A DNA stretch of 64,000 nucleotides, from NCBI GenBank assembly GCA_965205365.1, contig CBDBGT010000011.1:36292-100291 (forward strand), given 5' to 3'. The DNA comes from Bdellovibrionales bacterium (GTDB lineage Bacteria; Bdellovibrionota; Bdellovibrionia; Bdellovibrionales; UBA1609). The position numbers and the translations under genes were made by a program. Shown piece by piece: positions 4,660 through 31,764 of this stretch. Within the stretch, counting starts at the first letter, position 1, and each line of letters begins with the position of its first letter. The notes under the pieces were generated by a model, which was not told where the DNA came from, made no database searches, and was given only the letters and a program-made list of their open reading frames with translations.

Positions 4660-4856
4660 GGTTGAGTAAAAAAATCTTATGCTTAACCCTGGTCAAAGTT
4701 GGGAAATATTTTTTTTACTTCCTTCTTCATAGTGCATTTTTTTGATATTTTTTGAAATAATTTCATAAAGGTTTTAAGGCGGTTGCAATATGGAGAAAAG
4801 CCTTGTACTCTTCTGTTCGTAAAGATAAGGAAATAACAAACAAAGGAGATTTTTTT

Positions 4857-5756
4857 ATGAAAACATTAATTTTACTAATAGGATTTTTACTGCCCTTTAT
4901 AAGTTTTGCCATGGGTGATGGTACTAATTCCGCTAAGGATTGTGAACTTATATTATTTAGCAATAGGGCTAAAGCCATTGAGTACTTTGTCAGTAAAAGA
5001 TCTGGCTGCTTAAAATTTATAAATAATCAAGACAACACAGGCAACACGTTTCTACATACGGCTGTAAAGATAAATTACGAAACCATTTTAAAAGTGCTTA
5101 TTAAAGCTGGAGCAGATTTAGATATTCAAGATAACAGGAGTCTCACAGCTTTAATGATGGCTGTAACCCTTGGTGACGCAGCCACTACAAGTATACTCGT
5201 TAATGCTGGGGCAGATTTAGATATTAGAGATAACAGTGGCAGGACAGCTTTAATGGTGGCTGCAGTCTCTAATAACACAGCCGTTACAAGTATACTCGTT
5301 AATGCTGGGGCAGATTTAGATATTAGAGATGAAAGTCGCATGACAGCTTTAATGGTGGCTGTAGGCCTTGATCACACAGCTGTTACAAGTATACTCGTTA
5401 ATGCTGGGGCAGATTTAGATATTAGAGATAACAGTGGCAGGACAGCTTTAATGAGGGCTGTAGGCCTTGATCACACAGCCGTTATAAATATACTCGTTAA
5501 TGCTGGGGCAGATTTAGATATTAGAGATGAAAGTCGCATGACAGCTTTAATGCTAGCTGCATACTGGGGTCACGCAGCCACTGCAAGTATACTCATTAAT
5601 GCTGGGGCAGATTTAGATATTAGAGATGAAGTTCGCATGACAGCTTTACGATGGGCTAAAAGAAAGATAAGAGAAGCTAATAAAGCAGGGATTAAGGCTC
5701 CTGGTCATCGGTCTGTTGTAAGACTTATAGAAAAAGCAGCAAAAAGAAAAAAGTAA
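4857..5756 (+). CDS. Secreted ankyrin-repeat protein (about 6-7 repeats)
   Basis: AAGGAG RBS before ATG 4857, signal peptide MKTLILLIGFLLPFISFA, 99-bp repeats encoding TALMxA...LVNAGADLDIRD. Confidence 0.9.
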   Translation: MKTLILLIGFLLPFISFAMGDGTNSAKDCELILFSNRAKAIEYFVSKRSGCLKFINNQDNTGNTFLHTAVKINYETILKVLIKAGADLDIQDNRSLTALMMAVTLGDAATTSILVNAGADLDIRDNSGRTALMVAAVSNNTAVTSILVNAGADLDIRDESRMTALMVAVGLDHTAVTSILVNAGADLDIRDNSGRTALMRAVGLDHTAVINILVNAGADLDIRDESRMTALMLAAYWGHAATASILINAGADLDIRDEVRMTALRWAKRKIREANKAGIKAPGHRSVVRLIEKAAKRKK

Positions 5757-9075: not shown

Positions 9076-11223
9076 TTTTTTTAAATAATTAAAGAGCTTA
9101 AGACCTTAATTTTTTTTTACTACTTTTGTATCAAAATAAGAAAAAAACAGTTCTTTGAAAACACTAAGTTAAAAATAAAGCTAAAAACCCACACTTATTA
9201 CGCCTTAATATTAAATTAAGAAAATCACTTAATTTACTCAAGTTTTTAAGCCCTTTATCCGATACATAGAGTATAAAATATAAGAATTTATATAGGATAT
9301 AACATGAAAGCTTTAACTTTATTTACAGTTTTATTATGGACGTTTTCTTCCTTGGCTGTGCCAAGTTCTTTTGTCTTTCAAGGTCAAATTATAAAGCCCA
9401 ATGGAGAAGCCCTAGAAGACAATAATGTTAACTTTATTCTTAAAATCCTATCTCCCCTAAACCACTGCCTCCTCTATGAAGAAACCTTCACCCTTAATAT
9501 GACAGACTCAAAGGGAGTGTTTAACCTAAGTGTTGGGTCTGGCACAACCACAGGAAATGGTGGCTTAACAAGTTTATCTAAAGCCCTAGACAATTCCTTA
9601 AACAACATCACAGGGCTTAACTGTGACTCTGGTTCCTCATACAGTCCAAGCCTCACTGACACAAGAAAACTTAGAATGACTTTTGATGACGGCAGTGGTC
9701 CCCTTACTCTAACAAATGACCACACAATTGAAAGTGTGCCCTATGCTCAGTATGCTCATAAACTTGGCGGAAAAACACTTCATGACTTTATTCAAGTCAA
9801 CAGTGGTGTGACACAAAGTAATTTAGAAACTGTGTTTGATAACGGTGTAAACCAAAGAGAGTTTATGGCTTTAATTGAGGGCCGTTCTAACCAATACTCT
9901 CCATTAAGCACTAGTGGAGCTAGTTCTTTACCGAGCTTTTCAAATCCTCCCCTTAACTCTAAGGCAGGAGATGTTTGGTACAACTCTACAACCAATGAAA
10001 TCATGTACCACAATGGATCAGTAAACACCGTTGTTGGCCAAGGGAGTGGAACTGTGACCAGTATCACCACAGGAAGTGGTCTAAGTGGTGGAATCATTAC
10101 AAACAGCGGTACAATTTCAATTGCCACAGGGGGTGTATTAAACAGTCACCTTCAAGGTGGTATCCATGGAAGTAAAATCACAGGAGGAGTTTTACCAGCC
10201 TCAGTGGTTCCAACAGGAACTGATGATACAAAGCTTTCTCTTCAAGGAGGAAGTTTATTAGGTGATCTTAACCTTAATGGAAATGAGGTTTTAAACACAG
10301 GTCATATTATGCAAAACCCGAGGAGTACAATGACCCTAGGTTCTTATGGGAATTTAGAAGAGGCTAGTCTTTTAGGTTCTTTGAGTGCGGGGAATGCTGG
10401 AGCCACTTGGTACAATAGTGATTCTAGTGTGCTTAAGTACTGGGATGGTAGTGGTGTAGAAGTTTTAACCACAGTGAGTGTAGGTGTATCAAGTGTTTTA
10501 GTGAGTCCCCCGTTAACTTCTTCAGGTGGTAATGATCCAAGACTAGGCATAAGCCTTGGTAGGGGTTTATACAACAAGAGTGGAAGTGTGGAGATAGATT
10601 TAGACTCTCTTAGTGGTTTAGACTTTAATGGAAGTAAGTTAAAGGTAAAGGCAGGAAGTGGTATAAGACTAACAGGAAGTGGTATAGAGGCAGATACGGG
10701 AACGAGTTTAGGTCAGTTAATGAGAGTAGACAGTCTTCCTGTGTGCACAAGTGGGGAAAAGATTCAAAGAAACTCTGGAGCCACAGTGACTTATTCTTGT
10801 GTGGCTGATGTAGATGAAGACACAAGTCTTTTAGGAAAATCAGCAGGAGGAGACCTTAGTGGAACTTATCCAAACCCCATTTTAACATCAACAGGGGTGA
10901 GTGAGGGAATCTACTTAAAAGTTAGAGTGGACACTAAGGGAAGGGTAAGAGAGGGTTTAAGTTTAGTAGAAAGTGATATACCAAACTTAAGTGGAAATAA
11001 AATCACTTCAGGAACCATTAATACAAATAGATTAAACACAGGAACAGGGAGTAATGACCTTGTTAAGCTTGATGGTTTATCAAGGTTACCAAGTGTAGAT
11101 GGGAGTCAGCTTATAAACTTACCAAGTAGTGCTGACAATATGGGAAATGGTGAGGCGCAAGAGAATATACATCTTAATGGAAATTATTTAAGTGGAGACG
11201 GTGATAATGAGGGAATTAGTGTA
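9076..11223 (+). repeat. About 2.1-kb direct repeat (upstream region plus fibre shaft); second copy at about 27786-29934
   Basis: About 230 bp of upstream DNA and about 640 codons are nearly identical between the two fibre genes. Confidence 0.95.
9238..9265 (+). promoter_or_regulatory. Putative sigma28 (FliA) promoter of fibre gene 1
   Basis: tcaagttt-ttaagcccttta-tccgatac about 40 bp before the ATG; resembles TAAAGTTT-N11-GCCGATAA. Confidence 0.55.
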
Positions 11224-12084
11224 AACAGTGATGGCGATGTTTCTGCAACAGGGTCTATTAGTGCATCTAGTGTTGTGCTTTTAAATGGAATAAAAATTGG
11301 AACAGAGACAACAACTTGTAGCAGTGTAAATGAGGGAACTTTAAGGTATAGTACTTTAGAAAAGAAAATGGAGTTTTGTAATGGAACAGTGTGGAGTGTT
11401 TTAGGTGTTGAGCCTGATCCATGTCTTGTGTCTTCTTCACCCCCCCCCCCCCCCCCCTCAGGAACCGTGTGTAAAGGTGGAGCAATTTATCTTGGAAGTC
11501 TTAGCCCAGGTGCTACTAGTGGAAGTGGAACAGATCACTATATGACCACCCCTGGGGGTTGTGAGGACATTCCATCAGGAAGTGTTTCAGGAGGTTCGGG
11601 GACAAATTCCTATGCATTAAATGATTTTACAGTGATTTGTTCTGGTACGGATAGCTTACATAAAGATTGGAATGATAGTTTAACTAATTACTACGATATT
11701 CCAGGGCTAGTAAACTACATATCAACTCCTGGAACTGGTCATGGTGAAAGTAACATAGATTTAAATTACGGTTCAGCTAATACAGATGCAATTGCTGCCA
11801 TCACTTTACCGCTTCAAGGGGGTTATCATGCCGCAGCAAGGTATTGTCATAAGCTTGTTTATGGTGGTTATGATGATTGGCATTTACCTAATCGTTATGA
11901 GCTTAATTTAATGTACACAAACCGCTCTGTTATTCGAGGTTTAGATCAAAATGGTTCATATTATTGGTCGTCTACGGAGGACGATCATTACTATGCGTGG
12001 GTCCAGAGATTCTCAGATGGATTCCAGCATAATTATGACGGCAAGGCCAACGATTTTTTGATTCGGTGTGTGCGGCGGTTTTGA
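9304..12084 (+). CDS. MAT-like (mosaic adhesive trimer) fibre adhesin 1 with C-terminal DUF1566/Lcl C-type-lectin domain
   Basis: Signal peptide; FQGQIIKPNG..LE...CLLYEE...GVFNLSVGSG and SVPYA N-terminal motifs; Gly-rich tail-fibre shaft; GYDDWHLPNRYEL...YWSSTE...AW...RCVRRF tip. Confidence 0.85.
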   Translation: MKALTLFTVLLWTFSSLAVPSSFVFQGQIIKPNGEALEDNNVNFILKILSPLNHCLLYEETFTLNMTDSKGVFNLSVGSGTTTGNGGLTSLSKALDNSLNNITGLNCDSGSSYSPSLTDTRKLRMTFDDGSGPLTLTNDHTIESVPYAQYAHKLGGKTLHDFIQVNSGVTQSNLETVFDNGVNQREFMALIEGRSNQYSPLSTSGASSLPSFSNPPLNSKAGDVWYNSTTNEIMYHNGSVNTVVGQGSGTVTSITTGSGLSGGIITNSGTISIATGGVLNSHLQGGIHGSKITGGVLPASVVPTGTDDTKLSLQGGSLLGDLNLNGNEVLNTGHIMQNPRSTMTLGSYGNLEEASLLGSLSAGNAGATWYNSDSSVLKYWDGSGVEVLTTVSVGVSSVLVSPPLTSSGGNDPRLGISLGRGLYNKSGSVEIDLDSLSGLDFNGSKLKVKAGSGIRLTGSGIEADTGTSLGQLMRVDSLPVCTSGEKIQRNSGATVTYSCVADVDEDTSLLGKSAGGDLSGTYPNPILTSTGVSEGIYLKVRVDTKGRVREGLSLVESDIPNLSGNKITSGTINTNRLNTGTGSNDLVKLDGLSRLPSVDGSQLINLPSSADNMGNGEAQENIHLNGNYLSGDGDNEGISVNSDGDVSATGSISASSVVLLNGIKIGTETTTCSSVNEGTLRYSTLEKKMEFCNGTVWSVLGVEPDPCLVSSSPPPPPPSGTVCKGGAIYLGSLSPGATSGSGTDHYMTTPGGCEDIPSGSVSGGSGTNSYALNDFTVICSGTDSLHKDWNDSLTNYYDIPGLVNYISTPGTGHGESNIDLNYGSANTDAIAAITLPLQGGYHAAARYCHKLVYGGYDDWHLPNRYELNLMYTNRSVIRGLDQNGSYYWSSTEDDHYYAWVQRFSDGFQHNYDGKANDFLIRCVRRF
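11440..11457 (+). repeat. C18 homopolymer, in frame (Pro6)
   Basis: 18 consecutive C between shaft and lectin tip; the paralogue has only C5 here. Confidence 0.9.
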
Positions 12085-12245
12085 GGCTTAAAAGGGCTCA
12101 TTATGATTTTTAAATTAGTTAAAACTGCAGCTAAGGTAGCAACGCTCAAAGAACCCGAGATTAAACTTAAACCCTAAGCTTAGTTTTGTGTTTTTACTTT
12201 TTAAGTTCATATTTAATATTTTTTAGGCTGTACAGTCTATGGCAT

Positions 12246-13728
12246 GGTTCACCGTTATCTAGAAGGGTGTGATCCATGCCAACAAGCCTAAAGTCCTGAA
12301 AAAGATAAACAAGCTCCCTCCACACAATTAAAATTTGGTTACTAAATAAACTAAATTGTCGGAGGATTAAATGGAGCTATTTGAAAAGTTAATCGTAAAA
12401 TCACTAGGTCTTCAAGGTGTAAAATTAGAAAACTGGGAGGCTTGTGATAAAGAGTTAAAACTAGTCCTTTACGCAAAACAAGATCGTGAAAATGTAGGCT
12501 GTAATCAATGTGGCTGCCAAATATCTCATGTCCATGAGTGGAAGCTTCGAAAAATTAAAGCTTCTCCAATAGGCTCATATGAAGAGGTGTGGATTTACTT
12601 AAAACAGCTTCGAGGGCACTGCTTAATGTGTGATGATAAAGTCAGATCAGCTGGTGTTGATTTTACTCACCCTAATTTTGAAAACTTAACTTACTCACTT
12701 GTAGAAAAAGCAGGACGTCTTTGTGAAGAGATGACTTGTGAGTCAGTTGCTAGAATTTTAAGAATGAACCCCAAGACTGTGTGGAATTTGGATCAGTACC
12801 GGATGAAGCAAATAAAACCTCTTTTAAGCTATGCTGAAAGAAAGTTAGATTTAGAGCAGATGTCATCTGATGAGGTGCACTTTAGAACTATTTTTGGAAA
12901 GAAGTCTTGTGACAAGAATACGATTAAGTTCATCACAAATTTAGTCTGTACGAAGATGAGAAAGGTGCTCTCAAATGCAATGGGCAGAAAGGGTTCAAGC
13001 TTACTTAATTGTTTAAAGGTATTAACAAAAGAGCAGCTAGATAAGATCAAGTTTTTTGCAGTTGATATGCATGATGCTTTTATTGAGGCTGTGATAGGTA
13101 AATGTGAGAATGCTAAGGTCTGTGTTGATAGGTTCCATGTTGCAGAAGGGCTAAATAATTTTTTTGATGATGTGAGAAAATTTGAGTTTAAAAAAGCTAA
13201 AGAAAATGAAGATAAGTTTTTAATGGATGTGCTAGCACCTCATAAAAGATATATTTTAGTGGAGCGTGAGAAGAATTTATCTAAAGGAGATTTTACTAAA
13301 TTAGAGAGGCTTTTAGATGTGAATAAGAACATTTTTAAAGCTTCAGTTTTAGTTGAGCACTTCCATAAAGTTTTAGATCAAAAGAATGTAAAAGACTTTA
13401 GAAAAGCTCTGGTTCTTTGGTACCGATATGCAAGAGAGTCAAAATTAAAGCCCTTTTTGAAATTTGCAAAAACCTTAAGAAAGTACAGAGGTTACATTGA
13501 AGGATATATTATGTCTGGGCTCACAACAGCAGTAAGTGAAGGCTTAAACAACAAGATTAAAGTGCTTAGAAGGATGGGCTATGGTTACACAAACCCAGAG
13601 TCATTTATGCACAAAATACTGCAGCGATGTGGACTTTTAAACTCAAATTACATCAATACTTCAAGTTGGTACTGGCCACCTCAAATGAGATTGGCACAAA
13701 CTACACCCTTCTAGATAACGGAGAGGCC
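12246..13728 (+). mobile_element. Intact ISL3-family element
   Basis: Terminal IRs share the core ccgttatctagaagggtgt; 8-bp target duplication tatggcat at 12238-12245 and 13729-13736. Confidence 0.95.
12371..13714 (+). CDS. ISL3 transposase
   Basis: CNQC/CLMC zinc finger, DEVH, VDMH, DRFHV, SEGLNNKIK..R.GYG motifs. Confidence 0.95.
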   Translation: MELFEKLIVKSLGLQGVKLENWEACDKELKLVLYAKQDRENVGCNQCGCQISHVHEWKLRKIKASPIGSYEEVWIYLKQLRGHCLMCDDKVRSAGVDFTHPNFENLTYSLVEKAGRLCEEMTCESVARILRMNPKTVWNLDQYRMKQIKPLLSYAERKLDLEQMSSDEVHFRTIFGKKSCDKNTIKFITNLVCTKMRKVLSNAMGRKGSSLLNCLKVLTKEQLDKIKFFAVDMHDAFIEAVIGKCENAKVCVDRFHVAEGLNNFFDDVRKFEFKKAKENEDKFLMDVLAPHKRYILVEREKNLSKGDFTKLERLLDVNKNIFKASVLVEHFHKVLDQKNVKDFRKALVLWYRYARESKLKPFLKFAKTLRKYRGYIEGYIMSGLTTAVSEGLNNKIKVLRRMGYGYTNPESFMHKILQRCGLLNSNYINTSSWYWPPQMRLAQTTPF

Positions 13729-14785: not shown

Positions 14786-16015
14786 CTAATCAATACTCAT
14801 ATGAACTATTAAGGGCCTTCCTTTAGGAGGTGGGGAATCTTTTTTTTCTGATGAGGTGTTTGAATCTTCTTGACTAGAATTCTTTGAATGAGAAGAAGCA
14901 CTCTTGTCTAATTGTTCAATGAAAATTTCTTTTAAAGCATTTGCATCTAAAACGTAGGCTGTAATAGTTGTTGTTATGTTTCCTGTAATGCCAGATGATG
15001 TGACTAAAAAAGTGGAAAGAGGAGAGTAGAGAATGGGTATGCCATTTGAATGAATTTCTTCAATGTTAGAGAAGTTAAGCTCACTTAAAAGGTTGTCAAA
15101 ACTATTTTCATCAAGGCTTCCACCTTCAGCTTGTATCTCATCTCTGCGCATTAAAAAGTCTTTGGTTGCTTCTTCAGTAAACTGAGGGTCTATACTCATT
15201 AAGACATTTTTTTCAGCAGTGTTTACATTGATCCCAAAAGTGCCATGAATAGTAATAAGATTTTTTAAATGTTTGAATATAAGGTCATCCATTTTATCTA
15301 CAAGCATCAATTCAGATAAAGTCATAAAGGAGGAGTTTCTTGGGTAACCTTTTTGCTCTTCAAAAGTGTAAAAACTTGATTCACTGCCTCCGTTTCGAGA
15401 CTCTTCATCTTTGTCCACCCAATCAGCTACGTTATTTAAAACTTCTTTTATAGAATCTATTGAGTGTTTTTTTGATAAAGCATGGTCTGTGTCTAGAAGC
15501 TGGTTAAATGTACGTAGTAGGGTTTCTAGTGTTTTATTAGAAATAGTTTTTACAGGAGAGCCTAAGCTGTTTAAATCTATTTTTTCACCAGCATCTTGGA
15601 TTTGATGGAAAAAAGTAATATTACTAATTAAAGATTTTTTTAAAATGGTTTTGGTTTCATCTTTTGAAATTAGTCCTGCATTTTCTGGGATTTCTATGGG
15701 CCATGGTAGAGGGAACTGCCAAATCATTGCAAGCTGCTGGCTAAAGTTTATATTTTGATTTCCTACGGCTTTACTAATTGAGGCTTTTGCGTGTTGAAAA
15801 GCTTTGATTCTTAGTAATGCCATTTCTAAACCTGCTTTTGCAGAATATTTAGATTTTAATTTTTTCAACTCTCTACTTGCAAGAGTAGACTCAGTAAGTG
15901 TTTCTGTAGAAAGTTGAGTAACAATGAAGCCAGCAATGGTGAAAAAGAAAAGAGCCATCATCAACGCAGCACCGGTTTCATTTTTTTTATTTACAATCTC
16001 TTCTTTATCACACAT
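14786..16015 (-). CDS. gspK: Type II secretion minor pseudopilin GspK
   Basis: GAALMMAL prepilin-like N-terminus, KIDLN, DWVD.D, INVNTA motifs; last gene of the HIJK operon. Confidence 0.88.
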   Translation of the reverse strand: MCDKEEIVNKKNETGAALMMALFFFTIAGFIVTQLSTETLTESTLASRELKKLKSKYSAKAGLEMALLRIKAFQHAKASISKAVGNQNINFSQQLAMIWQFPLPWPIEIPENAGLISKDETKTILKKSLISNITFFHQIQDAGEKIDLNSLGSPVKTISNKTLETLLRTFNQLLDTDHALSKKHSIDSIKEVLNNVADWVDKDEESRNGGSESSFYTFEEQKGYPRNSSFMTLSELMLVDKMDDLIFKHLKNLITIHGTFGINVNTAEKNVLMSIDPQFTEEATKDFLMRRDEIQAEGGSLDENSFDNLLSELNFSNIEEIHSNGIPILYSPLSTFLVTSSGITGNITTTITAYVLDANALKEIFIEQLDKSASSHSKNSSQEDSNTSSEKKDSPPPKGRPLIVHMSID

Positions 16016-16030
16016 TAATAAATGAGTCTC

Positions 16031-16969
16031 CTAGAGTTGATTTACGTTGCTTGTAGGTTTTAAGGCTTGAGAGTCTTTGATTTTTTTAAAAGGGTTGTTG
16101 TTTGCAAAATCAGTTTGAAAAACACCAGTTAAGTATTCTTTTTTAAATTTTTTTTTGTTTTTTTTATCAGGGATTTTTATTTCTAAAAATAAGGAAACTG
16201 CGGCTGGAAAGTTATTTCCAGTACGCTGATCACTTTTATTTCGGCTATCCCAAGACTCAACCCAATCAGCAGTTTCTTTTGAAATATCTTCATCCTGAAA
16301 GCTTAAGTATTTAAACTCCGCTTTTTCAATATTTTCAATTAAAACAGACTCTTTTCCACCTTTGGTTACATCCTCATCAAGGTTATATGAAACAGATCTC
16401 CACAGACACTTTGATTCTTGATCTTTATATTTTCGACTTTTACAAGTTCTAATAAAGTATCCAATTTCAACTAAATCAGAAATTTTATCAGCAGACCTAA
16501 ACCGCACCCCTGAAGAAGATGTGAAATAAGCTTTCTCATTATCGGCAATGAAATGAGTATAGATTGTTTCTTTAATAGGTGCAATTGGACTTGGGCGAGG
16601 TTGAATATTCATACTTTTTTTTAACTCTTCGGTTAATGTTGCTACAGTTACAAAAGGTCGGGGGTTTTCTTTCTTATTGTATTCTTCAATTTTTTTCTTA
16701 ACATTAGCATCATATCTTTTTACTCGCTCTTTTTGAGCCTCAGTATATAAGAATAAATTTAGATCACGAAAGTTAATTGCTTTTCCAATATCTTTTTTAA
16801 TTATATTCATCGAGGCTCTTAGTTGATTGATATTGTCTATACCAGCTGTGATCCGCTTAGTTTGTACAGTAGATTTTCTAAGCATTTGTGTAGTTGTGAT
16901 GCTTAGAATAGACATAAGAGATATGGCTATGAGTAGTTCTAAAAGGGTGAAGGCTTTTTGGTTTGTCAT
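16031..16969 (-). CDS. gspJ: Type II secretion pseudopilin GspJ
   Basis: AFTLLELLIA cleavage motif, C-terminal W...P.AV, operon position. Confidence 0.8.
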   Translation of the reverse strand: MTNQKAFTLLELLIAISLMSILSITTTQMLRKSTVQTKRITAGIDNINQLRASMNIIKKDIGKAINFRDLNLFLYTEAQKERVKRYDANVKKKIEEYNKKENPRPFVTVATLTEELKKSMNIQPRPSPIAPIKETIYTHFIADNEKAYFTSSSGVRFRSADKISDLVEIGYFIRTCKSRKYKDQESKCLWRSVSYNLDEDVTKGGKESVLIENIEKAEFKYLSFQDEDISKETADWVESWDSRNKSDQRTGNNFPAAVSLFLEIKIPDKKNKKKFKKEYLTGVFQTDFANNNPFKKIKDSQALKPTSNVNQL

Positions 16970-17496
16970 AGGTTACTAACCCCTGAGGGAAGGTTTCCTA
17001 AACCTAGGTCTAAAGGTGTGTCGTAATCTACTAAAATTGTTGCAATGGAGAAGCGGTATTTTTCAGCTTTCGAGGAGGATTTATAAATTATTGTAACTTT
17101 TACTTCTTTAATAGAATCTTCAAGGTGCTTTTTCATTTGAGTAATGACCTTATGTTTCATCTCATCAAGAATACCTTCTTTTTGTGTGAGAAGGCGAGCT
17201 ATATCAGGCATTTTAAACTCAGCACTTTCCCATTCCCATGTGTATGCAGAAAGGCTTTTGTCTTTAAAAGTTCCTGTTTGAATATCCTTGGGAAGTTTTT
17301 TTACATCATTTTTATACATAATTTGAATTTCTGTTATTTTTTTTTCCAAAAGATAAACAGCTTGAGTTTTTGCTTTTGATTTTTTAACTCTTCTTAAATT
17401 TCCTTTCCAACTAGATGTGAGTAGGATCATTATGGAAGCTAAGATAGATAAAGCTATAATGACTTCTAAAAGAGTAAACCCTTTTTTAGTTTTCAT
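16966..17496 (-). CDS. gspI: Type II secretion pseudopilin GspI
   Basis: GFTLLEVIIAL motif; operon position. Confidence 0.78.
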   Translation of the reverse strand: MKTKKGFTLLEVIIALSILASIMILLTSSWKGNLRRVKKSKAKTQAVYLLEKKITEIQIMYKNDVKKLPKDIQTGTFKDKSLSAYTWEWESAEFKMPDIARLLTQKEGILDEMKHKVITQMKKHLEDSIKEVKVTIIYKSSSKAEKYRFSIATILVDYDTPLDLGLGNLPSGVSNL

Positions 17497-18125
17497 CGAT
17501 CTTGAAGCTCCTCTAAACTTTTATGGTCTTTAACTGTATAAAGTTCACCACTAATGCTATCTGAAATCATAGTGATTTTATAAGAGCCGTCTAGGTTTGT
17601 AAATTGTATAGATGTTTCCTCAACAAGGCCATGGGGGAAGTAGTGAAAAACTCCAAGCCCTTCACGAATAGGGTAGTCAATCCCTGAAATTTCAATTTGA
17701 TTGATTTTTAAATTTTTCGGCATTTTTAATTTTTGAAAACTAAATTTTCTAGCTTTTTTAAAGCCCTCATTGTTTTTTATTTTATTATTACCTTTGTTTT
17801 TTTCCTTGTTTTGAAAGTTTTTAAGTAGTTCTTTAAACTTTTCCCTAGATTCTTTCTCTGTTCCTAGAAGAATGGGCCTAGGTGTTTTTTCCACCCAGAT
17901 TTTAGGAGCCTCTTTATCGTTTAGTAGAAAAACTATTCTATATGTTGAGTTCTCTAATAAAGCTTGGTTTCTTATTTTTTTTGACATTAAAGAAAAGCGC
18001 CTAAAAAAACGTTGAAACTCTTTTTGAGGATTTTTAGGTGGCCTTACTGCAAATACAGCTAGGGTCCCTAAAATACCTAGCACTATAAGAATCTCAATAA
18101 GAGAAAATCCATTTTTTTTTGTCAT
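17493..18125 (-). CDS. gspH: Type II secretion pseudopilin GspH
   Basis: GFSLIEILIV motif; C-terminal FPHG...SG. Confidence 0.75.
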   Translation of the reverse strand: MTKKNGFSLIEILIVLGILGTLAVFAVRPPKNPQKEFQRFFRRFSLMSKKIRNQALLENSTYRIVFLLNDKEAPKIWVEKTPRPILLGTEKESREKFKELLKNFQNKEKNKGNNKIKNNEGFKKARKFSFQKLKMPKNLKINQIEISGIDYPIREGLGVFHYFPHGLVEETSIQFTNLDGSYKITMISDSISGELYTVKDHKSLEELQDR

Positions 18126-18195
18126 AATTTATTGTAAAGTGTAATTGATTGAGGTGGAAGGTAAATTTTTATATACCCTCATTCATTAAAAGTTT

Positions 18196-19020
18196 TTAGT
18201 TTAATAAAAGAACGTGTGCTCTTAGGCCCTCATGAATAAGGTTTAATGCTTTTTCAATTTTTTTTGAAATTTCAGAAAAAGCTTGAGTGTTTAATTCTTT
18301 AGTTTTCTCATTCATATATATTGATCTATTCATTTCTATTTGGATAGTATGCCGGCCTTTAAAAGGGTTGCCATAAGTTTGGGTTATGCGACCACCCTTA
18401 TAAGGCCAGTTCACCTTTACTTCAAAACCAGCTTTCTCATAAGAAAAAACAACAAGATCTTTAAATTTAGGATCGCAGCTTCTTCCATCTTCATCGCTAA
18501 TTACTATTTCAGCTCTAGTCTCTCCAGGGTCTCTGTGAATTGATGTTCCTTTAGACGGCATGCTGTGAACATCAATATGAAAAATACGCTTGTGACCTTG
18601 TAATTTAAAATATTCAAACTGTGCTTTAATAGCGTTGTGGAAAGGCTCATAATAAGATTTTACTAAAATAGCGTGAAGTTCTTTTGATATAGGCTTTTTC
18701 ATAAGAGTCTCACCAATGCTTGTTTTAACCCAATGAAGACCGCTTGAAAAAGTGCCAGAAGAGTTTGTTGATTTTTGAACACTGTCGCTGTCCACATCTA
18801 TATTTAACCTGTTTAAATCAATAGCATACCTGGACCATGGAGTGTATATAAATGGAAAGCCGTTTTTTTTTGCTAAGGGCCTATAAAAGGTGTCTATAAA
18901 ACGATCAACATCTCGTAATAGAGTAATAGGATTGAGTTCTTGTAGCCAGTTTGCTTCCATGGGAATTTTTTCACCAGAGTGTGGGCATGATATAAATATA
19001 GGTAAGTTTGATTGTTTCAT
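18196..19020 (-). CDS. N-formylglutamate amidohydrolase
   Basis: SCPHSG, D.FID, SRYAIDLNR, DVHSMPS, PYKGG, IQIEMNR motifs. Confidence 0.9.
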   Translation of the reverse strand: MKQSNLPIFISCPHSGEKIPMEANWLQELNPITLLRDVDRFIDTFYRPLAKKNGFPFIYTPWSRYAIDLNRLNIDVDSDSVQKSTNSSGTFSSGLHWVKTSIGETLMKKPISKELHAILVKSYYEPFHNAIKAQFEYFKLQGHKRIFHIDVHSMPSKGTSIHRDPGETRAEIVISDEDGRSCDPKFKDLVVFSYEKAGFEVKVNWPYKGGRITQTYGNPFKGRHTIQIEMNRSIYMNEKTKELNTQAFSEISKKIEKALNLIHEGLRAHVLLLN

Positions 19021-19098
19021 AAGAGTTATTTTAACATGTTTTTTACAACTTTAAAATATGTGTTTATGAGTTTTAGTTTATAAGTTAGTCTATTTTAT

Positions 19099-19650
19099 AT
19101 GAAAATTTATACTAAGACAGGGGACGCTGGGCAGACAAGTCTATTCTCAGGGGAGAGGGTTTCAAAAGCCCATAAATTAGTGGAGTCTTTTGGGTTTTTG
19201 GATGAGCTTAATACTGGTGTAGGTGTTCTTATTTGTAGTTTAAGGGCGGAGGAATTAGTAGAGTTTAATAAATCTATTGAGTTTTTTGAAAATCTACAGA
19301 GTCAAATTTTTTCTGTGGGAAGTTATTTGGCCTCAGAGTGTAAGGATCAAAAATATATTTTAAATATTTCAAAATGGGTGGCTTTACAAGAGTCTTATAT
19401 AGACAAACTAGATAGTGAATTAAAAGTGCTTAAAAACTTCATCCTTCCAGGAGGAGTGAGCTCTGCTTGCAATGCCCACTGTTGTAGGGTTTTAACCCGT
19501 AAAGCAGAACGGTGTGTTGTTGGTATAGGGCTTGATTTGGAAACAAGCCCTGTGATTCTTTATTTAAATAGATTATCAGATTTGTTTTTTGTTTTTGCAA
19601 GGTGGATAAATCATATTAAAAATATTAAGGAACCTATTTGGAAAAGTTAA
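19099..19650 (+). CDS. PduO-type cob(I)alamin adenosyltransferase
   Basis: MKIYTKTGD.G.T, FILPGG, RKAER, YLNRLSDLFF motifs. Confidence 0.92.
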   Translation: MKIYTKTGDAGQTSLFSGERVSKAHKLVESFGFLDELNTGVGVLICSLRAEELVEFNKSIEFFENLQSQIFSVGSYLASECKDQKYILNISKWVALQESYIDKLDSELKVLKNFILPGGVSSACNAHCCRVLTRKAERCVVGIGLDLETSPVILYLNRLSDLFFVFARWINHIKNIKEPIWKS

Positions 19651-20786
19651 ATTGTCTAAGCCGAATGGTTAAAAATTTAGATAAAGAAAAGTTTGAGGAA
19701 ATGGGGCCAAGCTTGAGTGGATCTTTTATGGACCTCTCTTTTAAAGAGGGGTCTGGAGCATATTATGCTCAGTTTGGAGAGAATGTAGAGAAAAGGTATT
19801 TAATAGGTAGCAATGGTAAGGTAAAATCAGAATTTACAGCATTTACAAGAGATTTATATCAAAAAGATAAAAATAGTCTTGTAAAAGTTCTTTTTATTGT
19901 AAACGCAAGAACTGTAAACACTAGAGAATCTTTAGTGGGCTGGTCTGAAAAATTATTTCCTGAGATTTTAAAGTTAAAAAAAGAGTTTTCATGTAGCCAC
20001 GCCCTTTTCTTTTTATCTAGAAGAGAAAAATGGTTGTTTGACTTTTTTATTCGCCCAAGAAAAAAAAGAGAAGACCAAATAAAGTTTAGTCATGTACGTG
20101 GAGCAAGTATACAAATTGTTCAGGGAACAAAGTTTTCTGCACAAGCCCCACTTAAGTATGTTAAAATAAGACGTGCTAAGGAAGAAGATCTTCAAAAATT
20201 AAGTGGATATATAAAGCAAGCATCTATGTATGCACCACTTTCAAGAAATGTAGGTGAGGAGCAGGTTTTAAAAGAGTTTAAGACGGTAAAAAATTTTTCC
20301 CCTGATGATGTGGCCCTAGCTTTTAATTCAAACGGTGAAATTGTAGGGTCTTTAGGTGCTGTAGATATGGCAAATCATGCAGACATTAAATTTAAATTTA
20401 ATGATTTATTTGAGCCTACCTTTAATGTCCTCCAAGGGTATCTAAGATTAGCATCCTGGGTTGCGGACTTAAGACCGGTTTTAGAAAAAAAAATACAAAA
20501 TGTAAGGATTTTTACACATATGTATTTTAACAATCATGATATTTTTTATTCTTTAATTTATTGGTGGATTGAGCAAACAAAACATATTTCTAAAAAAGAA
20601 AGGCCTGTGTTTTTGTATCCTTTTTATATGGGAGATTTAAAGGCAGCAGCGCCAGAATCTCTTTTTATCAGTAGCTTTAAGGGCGATATTTATTTAATTC
20701 AGGATGAAGGAGAGCTGCCATCTGAACTTTTAAAGCCAGTACTTTTTTCTCAACCTTTAGACATAGATTTAACATATTTAATTTAA
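19638..20786 (+). CDS. Hypothetical protein, possibly degenerate GNAT-like
   Basis: 382-aa ORF overlapping the preceding stop; no clear motif. Confidence 0.6.
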   Translation: MEKLNCLSRMVKNLDKEKFEEMGPSLSGSFMDLSFKEGSGAYYAQFGENVEKRYLIGSNGKVKSEFTAFTRDLYQKDKNSLVKVLFIVNARTVNTRESLVGWSEKLFPEILKLKKEFSCSHALFFLSRREKWLFDFFIRPRKKREDQIKFSHVRGASIQIVQGTKFSAQAPLKYVKIRRAKEEDLQKLSGYIKQASMYAPLSRNVGEEQVLKEFKTVKNFSPDDVALAFNSNGEIVGSLGAVDMANHADIKFKFNDLFEPTFNVLQGYLRLASWVADLRPVLEKKIQNVRIFTHMYFNNHDIFYSLIYWWIEQTKHISKKERPVFLYPFYMGDLKAAAPESLFISSFKGDIYLIQDEGELPSELLKPVLFSQPLDIDLTYLI

Positions 20787-20912
20787 TGAAAACATAGCTT
20801 ACATATAACTTTTAGGTTTTCTATGAGAACTGCCTAGACGATTTACTTGCAGGTTATCCCACAAAGAGGGAAACTGTTATATAGTATGTTTAAGTCTTTT
20901 TGGTGGGAATAA

Positions 20913-21863
20913 ATGAGTAGCAATTATTTTGAGAATAAAAAAATAAAAAGTGCTTTAGTTTATCTCTTTTTGCTATACTTAGCATATCTTGTAGTTGATA
21001 TATGTGTGCTTAAATTTATTAAGCCTAAATTCTTAGTTGAAGTATTGAGAAAAGATAAAGGCCCTAAGGTTAACACCTTTGAATCTCAAACAGGAAGTTT
21101 TGAAATTGCTGAGTTAGGAGAGAGAGGGACTTTTACTGACGAAATAATAGAGCGTAATATATTTAATTCAAAACAAATGCCTAAGCCTATTGCAAGCCTT
21201 GAAGGTAGAGATAGAACTGAGGAGCTTGAAGATGGGGAACCTGTGTTGTCAGCTTTACAACTTATATTAGCAGGAACTGCTGTTCATAGAAATCCATTTA
21301 GATCTCTTGCAACAATTACAAATTCAGGAAGTACTGTGAGTTATACAGTTGGTGATCAGGTGGCAAACCTTGCTGAAATTATTAGTGTCATTCGTAAAAA
21401 AGTTATTATTAGAAATTTAACAACAAAAAGACTTGAATATATTGAGATTTCTAAAGGCCAAGTTCCTGTGGAAGCACCTGTAGCTAGAAATAAATTTAAA
21501 CCTATTAAAAAAAAATCTAATGATTTAATCAAAAGAGATGGTAATAAGTTTATTGCTAAAAGGGCTGATGTGGATGCTCAAATAGCAAATATTTCATCCC
21601 TAGCTAGGCAGGCAAAAAGTAGGCTTGCTAGAGACCCTGCAACAGGTGAAATTTTAGGCTATGAAATTTTTGATATTAAACCAGGTTTGTTACAAAATTT
21701 AGGCATTCAAGATAATGACATTATTACTGAGGTCAATGGAAGGCCAATTAAGAATCCAATTCAAGCAACTAGTGCGTTTTCAAAACTTAAAGGTGTTAAT
21801 GAAATTAGAACCACAATAAATCGTGGTGGTCGAATTATTCAATTAGATTATATAATTGAATAA
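20913..21863 (+). CDS. gspC: Type II secretion protein GspC (with PDZ domain)
   Basis: N-terminal TM helix, RNIF, L.GT, PDZ motif LGIQDNDIITEVNG; precedes gspD. Confidence 0.85.
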   Translation: MSSNYFENKKIKSALVYLFLLYLAYLVVDICVLKFIKPKFLVEVLRKDKGPKVNTFESQTGSFEIAELGERGTFTDEIIERNIFNSKQMPKPIASLEGRDRTEELEDGEPVLSALQLILAGTAVHRNPFRSLATITNSGSTVSYTVGDQVANLAEIISVIRKKVIIRNLTTKRLEYIEISKGQVPVEAPVARNKFKPIKKKSNDLIKRDGNKFIAKRADVDAQIANISSLARQAKSRLARDPATGEILGYEIFDIKPGLLQNLGIQDNDIITEVNGRPIKNPIQATSAFSKLKGVNEIRTTINRGGRIIQLDYIIE

Positions 21864-21887
21864 GGATTTTGAAGAAAAGGGGATATT

Positions 21888-24122: not shown

Positions 24123-24124
24123 AT

Positions 24125-25819: not shown

Positions 25820-25822
25820 TAA

Positions 25823-27037: not shown

Positions 27038-27088
27038 AGATTTAAATTTAAAAAAGGTTTAGCATTTCTAAAGTAGAAGGAGAAAAAA

Positions 27089-28014: not shown

Positions 28015-31000
28015 ATGAAAGCTTTAACTTTATTTACAGTTTTATTATGGACGTTTTCTTCCTTGGCTGTGCCAAGGTCTTTTGTCTTTCAAGGTCAAAT
28101 TATAAAACCTAATGGGGAAGCCTTAGAAGATAATAATGTTAACTTTATTCTTAAAATCCTATCTCCCCTAAACCACTGCCTCCTCTATGAAGAAACCTTC
28201 ACCCTTAATATGACAGACTCAAAGGGAGTGTTTAACCTAAGTGTTGGGTCTGGCACAACCACAGGAAATGGTGGCTTAACAAGTTTATCTAAAGCCCTAG
28301 ACAATTCCTTAAACAACATCACAGGGCTTAACTGTGACTCTGGTTCTTCATACAGTCCAAACCTCACTGACACAAGAAAACTTAGAATGACTTTTGATGA
28401 CGGTGGTGGTCCCCTTACTCTAACAAATGACCACACAATTCAAAGTGTGCCCTACGCTCAGTATGCTCATAAACTTGGCGGAAAAACACTTCATGACTTT
28501 ATTCAAGTCAACAGTGGTGTGACACAAAGTAATTTAGAAACTGTGTTTGATAACGGTGTAAACCAAAGAGAGCTTATGGCTTTAATTGAGGGCCATTCTA
28601 ATCAATACTCTCCATTAAGCACTAGTGGAGCTAGTTCTTTACCTAGCTTTTCAAATCCTCCCCTTAACTCTAAGGCAGGAGATGTTTGGTACAACTCTAC
28701 AACCAATGAAATCATGTACCACAATGGATCAGTAAACACCGTTGTTGGCCAAGGGAGTGGAACTGTGACCAGTATCACCACAGGAAGTGGTCTAAGTGGT
28801 GGAATCATTACAAATAGCGGTACAATTTCAATTGCACCAGGGGGTGTATTAAACAGTCACCTTCAAGGTGGTATCCATGGAAGTAAAATCACAGGAGGAG
28901 TTTTACCAGCCTCAGTGGTTCCAACAGGAACTGATGACACAAAGCTTTCTCTTCAAGGGGGAAGTTTATTAGGTGATCTTAACCTTAATGGAAATGAGGT
29001 TTTAAACACAGGTCATATTATGCAAAACCCGAGGAGTACAATGACCCTAGGTTCTTATGGGAATTTAGAAGAGGCTAGTCTTTTAGGTTCTTTGAGTGCG
29101 GGGAATGCTGGAGCCACTTGGTACAATAGTGATTCTAGGGTGCTTAAATACTGGGACGGTAGTGGTGTAGAAGTGTTAACCACAGTGAGTGTAGGTGTAT
29201 CAAGTGTTTTAGTGAGTCCCCCGTTAACTTCTTCAGGTGGTAATGATCCAAGAATAGGCATAAGCCTTGGTAGGGGTTTATACAACAAGAGTGGAAGTGT
29301 GGAGATAGATTTAGACTCTCTTAGTGGTTTAGACTTTAATGGAAATAGGTTAAGAGTAAAAGCAGGAAGTGGTTTAAGACTAACAGGAAGTGGTATAGAG
29401 GCAGATACGGGAACGAGTTTAGGTCAGTTAATGAGAGTAGACAGTCTTCCTGTGTGCACAAGTGGGGAAAAGATTCAAAGAAACTCTGGAGCCACAGTGA
29501 CTTATTCTTGTGTGGCTGATGTAGATGAAGACACAAGTCTTTTAGGAAAATCAGCAGGAGGAGATCTTAGTGGAACTTATCCAAACCCCATTTTAACATC
29601 AACAGGGGTGAGTGAGGGAATTTATTCAAAAGTTAGAGTGGACACTAAGGGAAGGGTAAGAGAGGGTTTAAGTTTAGTAGAAAGTGATATACCAAATTTA
29701 AGTGGAAGTAAAATCACTTCAGGAACCATTAATACAAATAGATTAAACACAGGAACAGGGAGTAATGACCTTGTTAAGCTTGATGGTTTATCAAGGTTAC
29801 CAAGTGTAGATGGAAGTCAGCTTATAAATTTACCAAGTAGTGCTGACAATATGGGAAATGGTGAGGCTCAAGAGAATATACATCTTAATGAGCATTATTT
29901 AAGTGGAGACGGTGATAATGAGGGAATTAGTGTAGATGCATTAGGAAGGGTTGGAGTGGGTAAAAGGAATCCTCAAGCATTATTAGATGTTGCTGGAAAA
30001 GTAAGGGCAACAGAGATTTGTGATGAAAGAGGTGGAAACTGTAAGGATGTGTCAACAGGTTGGGATAGAGGGAGTGTAGGAGCAAACCAAGTGACCAACG
30101 TTCCTTTTGGAAATGTTTTAGGCACAGATGTTCAGACTGCAATTAATGAGCTTGATTCTAAAAAAGTTCCAATAACTAGAGAAATTGCAACAGTTTTAAA
30201 TAGTGGATTAAGTGGAGGGGGAGACTTATCCACCAACAAGAATTTAAGTGTGGATATTCATGGAACTGTAGAAGAAAGTATAGTGAGTGGTTTAGACAGT
30301 GTTTTAATTCACGATGTATCCCAAAATAGTTTAAAAAAAATAACACAGTCAAATTTTTTAAATGATTATTTTAAAGGATCTTTAGGAACGAGTTTAGGTG
30401 ATGCAATGGATGCTGGAGGTGTGCCTAGTTGTGGAGTGGATGAGAAGCTTAGAATGAGTCAAGGTCCTGTTTATTTATGGTCATGTGTGGTGGATGAAGA
30501 CACAAGTCTTTTAGGAAAATCAGCAGGAGGGGATCTTAGTGGAACTTATCCAAACCCCATTTTAACACCAACAGGGGTGAGTGAAGGAATCTACTTAAAA
30601 GTTAGAGTGGACACTAAGGGAAGAGTGACAGAGGGTTTAAGTTTATCAGAAAGTGATATACCAAATTTAAGTGGAAGTAAAATCACTTCAGGAACCATTA
30701 ATACAAATAGATTAAACACAGGAACAGGGAGTAATGACCTTGTTAAGCTTGATGGTTTATCAAGGTTACCCAGTGTAGATGGAAGTCAGCTTACAAACTT
30801 ACCAAGTAGTGCTGACAATATGGGAAATGGTGAGGCTCAAGAGAATATACATCTTAATGGAAATTATTTAAGTGGAGACGGTGATAATGAGGGAATTAGT
30901 GTAAACAGTGATGGTGATGTTTTTGCTTCTAGAAATATTGCTGCTGTGGGGTCTATTAGTGGATCTAGTGTTGTACTTTTAAATGGAATAAAAATAGGAA

Positions 31001-31764
31001 CAGAGGAAACAACTTGCAATACTTTAAACGAGGGAACTTTAAGGTATAGTGAAAAGAAAATGGAGTTTTGTAACGGAAGTGTGTGGAGTGTTTTAGGTGT
31101 TGATGATCCATGTCTTAGTTCTTCCCCCTTGCCAGGTGCTGTGTGTAAAGGTGGAGCAATTTATCTTGGAAGTCTTAGCCCAGGTGCTACCAGTGGTAGT
31201 GGAACAGATCACTACATGACCACCCCTGGGGGTTGTGGAGATATTCCATCAGGAAGTGTTTCAGGGGGTTCGGGGACAAATTCTTATGCATTAAATGATT
31301 TTACAGTGACTTGTTCTGGTACTGATAGTTTATTTAAAGATTGGAATAATAATACAAGTAATTGGTATAATATTCCAGGGCTAGCAAATTACACATCAAC
31401 TTTGGGAATTGGTCATGGTGAAAATAACATAGATTTAAATTACGGTTCAGCGAATACAGATGTAATTGTTGCCATTACTTTAGAGTCTCAAGGGGGCTAT
31501 CATGCCGCAGCAAGGTATTGTCATAAGCTTGTTTATGGTGGTTATGATGATTGGCATTTACCTAACCGCTATGAGCTTAATTTAATGTACACAAATCGTT
31601 CTGCTCTTCCAGGTTTGGTTCAAGGTTCAAATGCTTGGTATTGGTCGTCTACGGAGTACAATTTTACAATGCGTGGATCCAGCGGTTTTCTGATGGCTAT
31701 CAGAATGGCGGCAGTAAGAGCGATTCTCGGCGTGTTCGTTGTGTACGGAGGTTTTGAGGCCTGA
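28015..31764 (+). CDS. MAT-like fibre adhesin 2 with DUF1566-type tip; 1-nt frameshift in the last about 30 codons (homologous stop at 31755-31757)
   Basis: Paralogue of 9304..12084 with a 323-aa insertion. The homologous NAWIQRFSDG...RCVRRF* lies in another frame after the T4 run at 31662-31665. Confidence 0.85.
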   Translation: MKALTLFTVLLWTFSSLAVPRSFVFQGQIIKPNGEALEDNNVNFILKILSPLNHCLLYEETFTLNMTDSKGVFNLSVGSGTTTGNGGLTSLSKALDNSLNNITGLNCDSGSSYSPNLTDTRKLRMTFDDGGGPLTLTNDHTIQSVPYAQYAHKLGGKTLHDFIQVNSGVTQSNLETVFDNGVNQRELMALIEGHSNQYSPLSTSGASSLPSFSNPPLNSKAGDVWYNSTTNEIMYHNGSVNTVVGQGSGTVTSITTGSGLSGGIITNSGTISIAPGGVLNSHLQGGIHGSKITGGVLPASVVPTGTDDTKLSLQGGSLLGDLNLNGNEVLNTGHIMQNPRSTMTLGSYGNLEEASLLGSLSAGNAGATWYNSDSRVLKYWDGSGVEVLTTVSVGVSSVLVSPPLTSSGGNDPRIGISLGRGLYNKSGSVEIDLDSLSGLDFNGNRLRVKAGSGLRLTGSGIEADTGTSLGQLMRVDSLPVCTSGEKIQRNSGATVTYSCVADVDEDTSLLGKSAGGDLSGTYPNPILTSTGVSEGIYSKVRVDTKGRVREGLSLVESDIPNLSGSKITSGTINTNRLNTGTGSNDLVKLDGLSRLPSVDGSQLINLPSSADNMGNGEAQENIHLNEHYLSGDGDNEGISVDALGRVGVGKRNPQALLDVAGKVRATEICDERGGNCKDVSTGWDRGSVGANQVTNVPFGNVLGTDVQTAINELDSKKVPITREIATVLNSGLSGGGDLSTNKNLSVDIHGTVEESIVSGLDSVLIHDVSQNSLKKITQSNFLNDYFKGSLGTSLGDAMDAGGVPSCGVDEKLRMSQGPVYLWSCVVDEDTSLLGKSAGGDLSGTYPNPILTPTGVSEGIYLKVRVDTKGRVTEGLSLSESDIPNLSGSKITSGTINTNRLNTGTGSNDLVKLDGLSRLPSVDGSQLTNLPSSADNMGNGEAQENIHLNGNYLSGDGDNEGISVNSDGDVFASRNIAAVGSISGSSVVLLNGIKIGTEETTCNTLNEGTLRYSEKKMEFCNGSVWSVLGVDDPCLSSSPLPGAVCKGGAIYLGSLSPGATSGSGTDHYMTTPGGCGDIPSGSVSGGSGTNSYALNDFTVTCSGTDSLFKDWNNNTSNWYNIPGLANYTSTLGIGHGENNIDLNYGSANTDVIVAITLESQGGYHAAARYCHKLVYGGYDDWHLPNRYELNLMYTNRSALPGLVQGSNAWYWSSTEYNFTMRGSSGFLMAIRMAAVRAILGVFVVYGGFEA
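29524..30903 (+). repeat. Internal 411-bp (137-aa) module duplicated at 29524-29934 and 30493-30903; single copy in fibre 1 (10813-11223)
   Basis: DEDTSLLGKSAGGDLSGTYPNP...GDNEGISV occurs twice. Confidence 0.95.

Follow-up and report, generated by a model that had tools for sequence, protein, structure and literature searches.

Introduction

Runs of G or C of about 8 nt or longer are classic slipped-strand switches of surface genes in Neisseria and Campylobacter, and the classical tracts of these organisms measure about 7–13 nt. In this study, we analysed an uninterrupted run of 18 cytosines (C18) in a gene predicted to encode a MAT-type fibre, here called fibre 1, which lies on a 64,000-nt stretch of the genome of a Bdellovibrionales bacterium (contig CBDBGT010000011.1, positions 36,292 to 100,291 of the forward strand; hereafter the window). 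The run stands directly upstream of the lectin-like tip of the fibre, and a slipped-strand phase-variation switch for this tip appears to be its best explanation, with a probability of roughly 0.7 in our estimate.

Poly-G/C contingency loci (phasomes) have been described in surface genes of Neisseria and Campylobacter (PMC5084427, PMC8437040, PMC5380846). According to the available parts of these papers, such loci resemble the present one in that a pure G/C homopolymer lies inside a surface-protein open reading frame (ORF), a 1-nt change causes a frameshift, many loci occur per genome and their frame states are mixed. They differ in tract length (11–30 nt here), in the organism and in the protein family (MAT fibres here), and switching in the present case is a prediction from sequence. 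The C18 tract lies 77% along the fibre 1 ORF at a domain junction, so the OFF state would drop one domain and not the whole protein, unlike in Neisseria and Campylobacter.

Related switches are known in phages and in pili. In Campylobacter phages, genes for receptor-binding proteins contain polyG tracts that are hypermutable (Sorensen et al. 2021, Cell Rep 35:109214, as cited in the accessible part of PMC10877375), and contingency loci are reported for T-even phages in the accessible part of bioRxiv 10.1101/2025.10.21.683753. In these phages, as far as the same excerpts tell, homopolymer slippage in fibre or receptor-binding genes likewise diversifies target recognition, whereas the present locus is on a bacterial chromosome, in a fibre family that has 14 fibre-type paralogues. 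An intragenic G-tract works as an ON/OFF switch of sortase-dependent pili in Bifidobacterium breve, and replication slippage in a homopolymer thus controls a surface appendage there too (PMC9187656, available portion); the appendage type and the phylum are different.

The MAT (mosaic adhesive trimer) fibres of Bdellovibrio bacteriovorus were described in 2024 as a prey-recognition repertoire (Caulton et al. 2024, PMC10769870). In the part of that paper available to us, these fibres share with fibre 1 an N-terminal MAT domain after a signal peptide, a long shaft and a variable C-terminal tip, and the C-terminus of Bd2740 has a C-type lectin fold too. Both organisms have many paralogues whose N-termini are conserved, while the present fibres differ in having Lcl_C-type tips, some of which are targets of diversity-generating retroelements (DGRs), and in the junction poly-C tract of four of them. 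DGR-diversified C-type-lectin/DUF1566 targets have the same tip fold, and members of the same gene family are DGR targets here, but fibre 1 is not a clean target and its tract is a separate, frame-based mechanism. The main text of PMC10769870 contains no mention of phase variation, homopolymer, frameshift or DUF1566, and a 2026 Bdellovibrio review (PMC13689555) none of phase variation, homopolymer, slipped or retroelement. A literature search on Bdellovibrio or Bdellovibrionota together with phase variation gave no relevant paper among the matches listed. The kind of switch is known and the fibre family newly described; what is unusual is the very long tracts and their position at a domain junction.

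The source genome (G000) comprises 2.42 Mb in 13 contigs (C1 to C13) with a GC content of 33–37% by contig. The window corresponds to C11:36292–100291 and has a GC content of 0.28–0.41 per 2-kb bin. Positions without prefix refer to the window, other positions are given as contig:position in the source genome, and G001 denotes a congener genome.

The C18 tract and the fibre 1 protein

The C18 tract (11440..11457, plus strand) is flanked by tcttcttca and tcaggaacc. Since its start falls on a codon boundary, (11440 − 9304)/3 = 712, the tract is read as six CCC codons, Pro713–Pro718, in the peptide ...EPDPC(707)LVSSS-PPPPPP-SGTVC(723)KGGAIYLG... It is the sole C or G run of at least 8 nt in the window, its length is far beyond the background run-length distribution of the genome, and the 11 overlapping C8 matches observed compare with 0.43 expected and were reached in 0 of 100 shuffles. 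The original prediction had described an in-frame Pro6 tract of 18 C in a strongly AT-rich genome, upstream of a DUF1566-type domain, with only C5 at the homologous site of a second fibre; each of these points was borne out by the 18 consecutive C at 11440–11457, the genome GC of about 0.33–0.34, the ORF 9304..12084, the Pfam Lcl_C match at residues 841–924 and the C5 run at 31124–31128 of fibre 2.

The effects of length changes were also as predicted. In the frame translation, removal of one C leaves the shaft with a 28-residue out-of-frame tail (QEPCVKVEQF...ITI*), and addition of one C leaves the shaft with Pro6 and LRNRV*; after either 1-nt shift the 208-residue tip is untranslated, so that a tipless fibre results. 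A 3-nt change adds or removes one proline of the linker and nothing else.

The fibre 1 ORF (9304..12084, plus strand) encodes 926 aa with a hydrophobic signal-like N-terminus, and profile matches place the product in the MAT family with a lectin-like tip. The MAT N-terminal domain occupies residues 9–166 (9328..9801, plus strand; NCBIfam NF053851 Bdello_MAT_N, 160.8 bits against a cut-off of 60, E 2.3e-47), and a profile search of the genome found 15 MAT_N-bearing loci, fibre 1 among them. The tip module, residues 719–926 (11458..12081, plus strand), is Lcl_C or C-type-lectin-like according to Pfam, the AlphaFold2 model and fold matches. The Pfam domain Lcl_C (DUF1566, PF07603) at residues 841–924 scored 49.6 bits against a cut-off of 34.9. 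AlphaFold2 was run on residues 687–926 with 38 aligned homologues; the mean predicted local distance difference test (pLDDT) of the tip model was 92, with values above 90 from about residue 717, while the first ~30 residues (687–716), which hold most of the tract, had values of 52–70. Among PDB entries searched with Foldseek, the Legionella Lcl C-terminal domain (8q4e, E 6.8e-6) matched the tip model best. Many C-type lectins came next, among them the MAT tip Bd2740 (8oks) with a weak match, and phmmer against PDB likewise returned 8q4e.

Among the long paralogues, the N-terminal 647 residues are 97–98% identical and the C-terminal parts including the tips 72–81%. By these models and profiles, fibre 1 is a MAT-type fibre with a diversified tip predicted to fold independently on a conserved body. 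Non-S74 MAT tips are described as folding independently, which may help tip swapping, in the available text of Caulton et al. (2024, PMC10769870), and this makes a tipless shaft plausible. The modelled position of the tract, in a low-confidence linker before a well-folded tip, was counted in favour of the phase-variation switch.

The tract is enclosed by the Cys707–Cys723 junction loop (11422..11472, plus strand; Cys codons 11422–11424 and 11470–11472). Conservation of both cysteines is at least 90% across the 38 aligned sequences, and 15 residues lie between them in fibre 1, compared with 9–10 in the tract-free paralogues and distant homologues inspected. The term shaft/tip junction, under which the tract had been predicted, fits this site between a conserved Cys pair and directly upstream of the lectin-like head.

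The same junction in paralogues

Junctions of the shaft/tip type number 26 in the genome, 14 behind a fibre shaft and 12 in other contexts; the non-fibre junction genes whose 5′ end was read are small lipoproteins that have a LAACGSS signal and, ahead of the tip, a PDPDPD-type linker. The original prediction had suggested a survey of the fibre paralogues for similar tracts, and such tracts were indeed found: a pure C run occupies the identical junction site in 5 of the 26 genes (4/14 fibre-type, 1/12 lipoprotein-type), with lengths of 11, 18, 19, 19 and 20. These are the window gene (C11:47731, fibre, C18, in frame), a fibre at C5:727186 (C20, context ...tcactca, in frame), a fibre at C5:534574 (gene G000:C5:531456–535225; C19, out of frame), a fibre at C13:21899 (C19, out of frame) and a lipoprotein tip at C10:126095 (C11, in frame). 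No C run longer than 6 nt occurs in the tract-free junctions, 17/21 of which read SSPLPG or SSPTPG and the remainder other short loops.

Over the 50 nt that precede the tract, the three other tract fibres are 100% identical to the window copy, and the C11 lipoprotein gene, which has no shaft sequence there, reaches 77%. Over the 50 nt that follow the tract, identity to the window copy is 94–100% in all four. Because the flanks are near-identical and the lengths are 11, 18, 19, 19 and 20, tract length has diverged much faster than the flanks.

In both C19 genes the shaft frame is open for 1042–1048 codons to the tract and meets a stop about 29 codons beyond it, and an intact tip ORF of 208–210 codons lies downstream in another frame. 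Judged by these frames, both copies show the pattern of an OFF state and not that of a decayed pseudogene. The ratio of non-synonymous to synonymous substitution rates (dN/dS) of the C19 tips outside the variable repeat (VR), compared with their nearest relatives, was 0.24–0.58, a weak estimate drawn from 5–12 non-synonymous and 6–11 synonymous changes.

Under a phase-variation switch, C18 would be a hypermutable simple-sequence repeat, that is, a contingency locus, in the Cys–Cys loop joining shaft to tip, and slipped-strand mispairing in replication would gain or lose C residues. Lengths of 18 ± 3n would give the whole fibre with 5, 6 or 7 linker prolines; at other lengths translation would end 5 or 28 codons beyond the tract and leave a shaft without the ligand-binding head. 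As assembled, the window copy would be ON, the C11 and C20 copies are likewise in frame, and both C19 copies are out of frame. Since the five junction tracts are in differing frame states, individual cells would show different subsets of tipped fibres. We infer for this switch a high and reversible slippage rate in living cells, under selection.

Slippage could also take place after replication. RNA polymerase, and possibly ribosomes on the six slippery CCC codons, might slip often on the run, giving mixed tipped and tipless chains whatever the DNA length, and such recoding could coexist with DNA slippage. The run is much longer than the 8–9 bp RNA:DNA hybrid, the out-of-frame copies retain intact downstream ORFs, as expected if they are still partly expressed, and an intact EF-P is present, so Pro6 can be translated. 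To our knowledge, slippage has been documented less well for G/C than for A/T runs, which weighs against this explanation, and equal rescue of all frames would make the frame state irrelevant; the data are compatible with recoding and do not demand it. The tracts of 18–30 nt are far beyond the A/T lengths documented for transcriptional slippage in the available part of PMC1088944. Altogether, we consider recoding an unlikely explanation of the tract.

Origin of the tract

Tip homologues numbered 15,517 at E ≤0.001 among 1.84 billion representatives, and the loop was inspected in 39 homologues from other organisms that cover the whole tip. Most of them keep DPC-x-SPTPG-T-x-C-x-GGAIYLG, the loops counted have 9–10 residues, and four or more consecutive prolines occur in the loop of 0 of the 39. 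In G001, a lipoprotein tip gene has an N-terminus closely like that of the C11-bearing lipoprotein, and its junction reads tct tct ccc acc cca; from this likeness, it looks like the orthologue of the C11 gene. A C/G run of at least 12 nt was found in 0 of the 5 relatives searched. Four congeners have 1–7 C/G runs of 9–11 nt each, none in a fibre junction. At least two of these runs, both G9 and in G001, lie directly upstream of start codons (C1:127326 and C1:392890 of that genome), and the proteins have signal-like N-termini (MKKLTPFIAIALFSISAF... and MIKTKILYILPILALSFF...), which hints at shorter homopolymer switches elsewhere in the genus.

The codon CCC accounts for 12.4% of the Pro codons in 827 long ORFs, so that six consecutive CCC codons would arise with a probability near 4e-6. 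Elsewhere than in the long C tracts there are seven runs of at least four prolines, all of 4–5 Pro with mixed codons or CCT. Taken together, these comparisons indicate that the tract is derived and that the homopolymer is not a protein-level requirement. An alternative would be a structural polyproline spacer under protein-level selection, and in its favour the in-frame Pro6 lies in a linker where all homologues are rich in proline (SPTPG). The run uses exclusively the minor codon CCC, 2 of the 4 tract-bearing fibre copies are out of frame, and the stand-alone tips have PDPDPD linkers with mixed codons. We therefore give the spacer an almost negligible probability and reject it on the CCC codon bias and the homologue loops without four or more prolines.

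Long G/C tracts across the genome

Counts of G/C homopolymers drop about five-fold per extra base to 9–10 nt and are followed by a separate tail of 11–30 nt. The six large contigs carry 20 G/C runs of at least 11 nt, all within five surface-protein families, and 0 of the 20 lie in housekeeping genes. The fibre-junction family accounts for 5 tracts. A small lipoprotein family has 10 copies with runs of 9–24 nt at about codon 55 (C10:331931–346426, C5:217138–218801 and C5:795768–797147). The remaining families are pilin-like genes with runs of 21, 23 and 25 nt shortly before the ATG, a large lipoprotein that contains Ig-like and DUF285 domains (14–28 nt, one tract split by an insertion sequence, IS) and a VWA lipoprotein (30 nt). 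The tracts are at switch-typical positions, namely after lipoprotein signals, upstream of a start codon and at a domain junction. The coding strand has C in some tract families and G in others, and every tract shown is pure.

In the approximately ten small lipoprotein genes (MNMKSKSILPVCLLFSFTACQ...), the runs are G9–G24 and 1/10 copies is in frame as assembled; 160–227 open codons are kept downstream in 10/10 copies, and so in 9/9 OFF copies. The sole in-frame copy (C10:344866–345624, G19) is without a Pfam match. The IS in the poly-G tract of the Ig/DUF285 lipoprotein gene (G000:C13:434614–436144) contains a 458-aa transposase-like ORF and is flanked by G14 and G27.

The longest A/T runs on the large contigs are 12 nt, so the long G/C tracts do not reflect a general microsatellite instability. 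Full-length MutS1 (725 bits) and MutL (408 bits) genes without stops are present, as in 12/12 relatives searched, and loss of mismatch repair was thereby ruled out as the cause of the long tracts. Neisseria also retains MutS and MutL.

These data bear on a non-adaptive expansion, in which the run would be a recent neutral or mildly harmful microsatellite in a redundant family, the OFF copies would be young pseudogenes and nothing would be regulated. Such an expansion would agree with a derived and lineage-specific tract (0/39 homologues, an orthologue-like congener gene without it and 0/5 relatives with a C/G run of at least 12 nt), with the high redundancy of 14 fibre-type paralogues, with the further lesions, a frameshifted VR and inserted IS elements, that are present in fibre 2 and other copies, and with a longer Cys–Cys loop that may already impair the tip. 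It does not fit the concentration of 20/20 long G/C tracts in surface-protein genes at switch-typical positions with none in housekeeping genes, the end of A/T runs at 12 nt together with the purity of every tract, and the intact downstream ORFs in 2/2 OFF fibres and 9/9 OFF small lipoprotein genes. For these reasons we regard non-adaptive expansion as rather improbable.

Mosaicism around the junction

A tip tree was calculated for 25 of the 26 junction loci, leaving out the degenerate C11:262417. The tract-bearing tips do not form one clade: the tree needs 4 changes, its well-supported branches force at least 3, and the five tract-bearing tips were united in 0/200 bootstrap trees. Fibre 1 and its sister gene C5:572984 are 92% identical overall. 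Around the junction, fibre 1 is nearer to the tract-bearing long fibres (100/100/95%) than to this sister (86/90/86%). The tract haplotype has ...ggaaccgtgtgt in common with the SSPTPG-type lipoprotein tips, and the SSPLPGAVC type present in 9/10 tract-free fibres does not match it. From this distribution we infer that the junction patch may have moved by gene conversion between lipoprotein tip genes and fibres; repeated loss of the tract is the alternative.

One could extend this to a portable junction cassette of about 100 nt with the tract as its core, gene-converted between lipoprotein tip genes and MAT fibres. It would stack three diversity generators on one adhesin family: tips would be swapped by recombination at the conserved DPC...GGAIYLG junction, DGRs would mutagenise the lectin pocket, and poly-C would decide whether a fibre has a tip; tracts of 18–30 nt would also slip in transcription, so that one trimeric fibre would mix tipped and tipless chains and head valency would be tuned. 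We offer this combination tentatively and rather doubt it.

The same mosaicism bears on whether the tract serves as a recombination aid. The G-run of the opposite strand might form a G-quadruplex or a fragile site promoting tip exchange at the junction, and a G-quadruplex initiates pilin antigenic variation in Neisseria. The near-identical sequence around the tract despite tips that are not one clade (at least 3 changes forced, 0/200 bootstraps), the closeness of the fibre 1 junction to the tract-bearing long fibres over the 92%-identical sister, the same haplotype in a lipoprotein tip gene and the IS inside another poly-G tract (C13:434614–436144) would all agree with such a role. However, homologous recombination in the conserved flanks suffices and tract-free junctions have the same flanks, the coding strand carries C or G depending on the family so that no strand is consistent, and the tree is also compatible with an older tract that was lost repeatedly. 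A recombination aid is thus very unlikely to be the reason for the tract.

Sequence quality and points against a switch

The seven small contigs of the assembly (C1, C3, C4, C6, C8, C9 and C12; 3.2–8.2 kb each, about 40 kb in total) contain homopolymers of all four bases, with A up to 53, T up to 77 and G/C up to 26 nt, and 15 G/C runs of at least 11 nt. Their sequence does not look bacterial, and they probably derive from the host or another foreign source or are of low quality. A stretch of 255 foreign letters before a C run aligned at 11442 is not in the genome, looks like a spurious poly-C alignment and was discarded. Metagenomes were scanned for two patterns, the junction with a gap of variable length and C9 ahead of the GGAIYLG codons, with 0 matches to either, and a scan of genome contigs with the tip protein gave 2 weak, unrelated loci.

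The tract itself could be an assembly or consensus artefact, in view of the 15 G/C runs of at least 11 nt and the A/T runs of up to 77 nt on the seven small contigs (40 kb) and since no short-read contig listed spans the tract. Against this, five paralogues have the run at one and the same codon, the sequences on either side of it are colinear, and tract-free copies have ccc acc cca or ccccc ttg cca in its place. The other 15 long tracts form four more families with matching flanks within each multi-copy family, and length differences of up to 9–15 nt between copies cannot be miscalls, an uncertainty of 1–2 nt being realistic. An artefact is accordingly an exceedingly improbable explanation of the tract as such.

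Several observations weigh against the switch. The locus was found in two public runs of one sample and one study as Logan contigs, whose pieces of 81–405 nt over 10600–12350 belong to the paralogue family and include none listed that bridges 11440–11457, and no indel is reported. Consensus calling of 18–30-nt homopolymers is error-prone, so each ON/OFF call could be off by one base, and the equal C19 lengths could be a systematic miscall. In-frame tract alleles have Cys–Cys loops of 14–17 residues, 5–8 residues over the conserved 9–10 found elsewhere, so that poor folding is conceivable even in the ON state. In a family of 14 fibre-type paralogues, the OFF copies may be no more than damage that is tolerated. 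Long tracts are not a conserved trait, as the 0/5 relatives with a C/G run of at least 12 nt indicate, and with MutS and MutL intact the genome is without a general repair defect.

We nevertheless favour phase variation of the tip as the reading of C18. The original prediction stands here on the paralogue lengths with OFF copies and intact tips, on the 20 surface-gene tracts and on the dispensability of a polyproline, all of which would fit a switch; the part of it that called the tract a second layer of variation in the same adhesin is not supported for fibre 1, as detailed in the next section.

If the tract switches, a relative of the Bdellovibrio predators would hedge over which of its fibres bear a ligand-binding head, and target recognition would be stochastic in each single cell. 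Within this gene family, tip switching would then run beside the exchange of tips and mutagenesis by retroelements, and a 2.4-Mb genome with 20 very long G/C tracts confined to surface-protein genes would offer a small new phasome model beyond the classical pathogens. In annotation, tract genes will be split or truncated by gene callers, and their apparent state will flip with homopolymer miscalls.

Relation to diversity-generating retroelements

Three DGR reverse transcriptase genes with identical scores lie at C5:245277–245960, C5:418954–419637 and C11:406328–407011, each beside a MAT fibre, and two RVT_1 fragments are present besides them. Among the RVT_1 profile matches of the genome, none falls within the 64-kb window. 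The template repeats of the three DGRs are identical over the ~210-nt stretches compared, and their counterpart in the tips is the final stretch of ~112 nt. The DGR-adjacent fibres differ from the template at 8–14 A sites and at 0 non-A sites.

The template-homologous region of fibre 1 (11964..12078, plus strand, by alignment to the template) is diverged and is not a clean variable repeat. Its mismatches involve 15/34 A sites and 17/75 non-A sites, with 3 gap columns and a diverged 3′ end. Fibre 1 was therefore ruled out as a target of the present DGR template by the 17/75 non-A mismatches and the altered 3′ end, and together with the absence of a reverse transcriptase from the window this leaves the claimed second layer of variation unsupported for fibre 1.

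The C19 paralogue C5:534611 has 15 A against 1 non-A mismatch, a clean DGR signature, and compared with DGR-clade relatives its dN/dS is 4.4–4.8 in the VR and 0.24–0.58 in the rest of the tip. On these comparisons, stacking of a DGR and a tract appears real in the family (C19 paralogue C5:531456–535225) and is not supported for fibre 1.

Fibre 2 and other genes of the window

Fibre 2 (28015..31764, plus strand) is a tract-free MAT paralogue of 1249 aa with C5 at 31124–31128, and it matches NF053851 equally well as fibre 1. Its DGR-type VR (31641–31764) differs from the template at 13 A sites and 1 non-A site. A 1-nt deletion in this VR puts the last ~35 codons out of frame, so that ...YWSSTEYNFTMRGSSGF... 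replaces ...AWIQRFSDG...VRCVRRF, and because of this deletion the Lcl_C score of fibre 2 is below the cut-off (31.5 against 34.9 bits).

Directly downstream of fibre 1 and outside the proposed switch lies an ISL3-family transposase gene (12371..13714, plus strand; Pfam DDE_Tnp_ISL3, E 1e-47). An ORF at G000:C10:335941–337284 also encodes 447 aa and has the same N- and C-terminal residues as this transposase. Upstream of fibre 1, an ankyrin-repeat protein with five repeats is encoded at 4803–5756, and a complete-looking type II secretion cluster (pseudopilins and GspC/D/E/F/G) occupies 14786–27508 between the two fibres.

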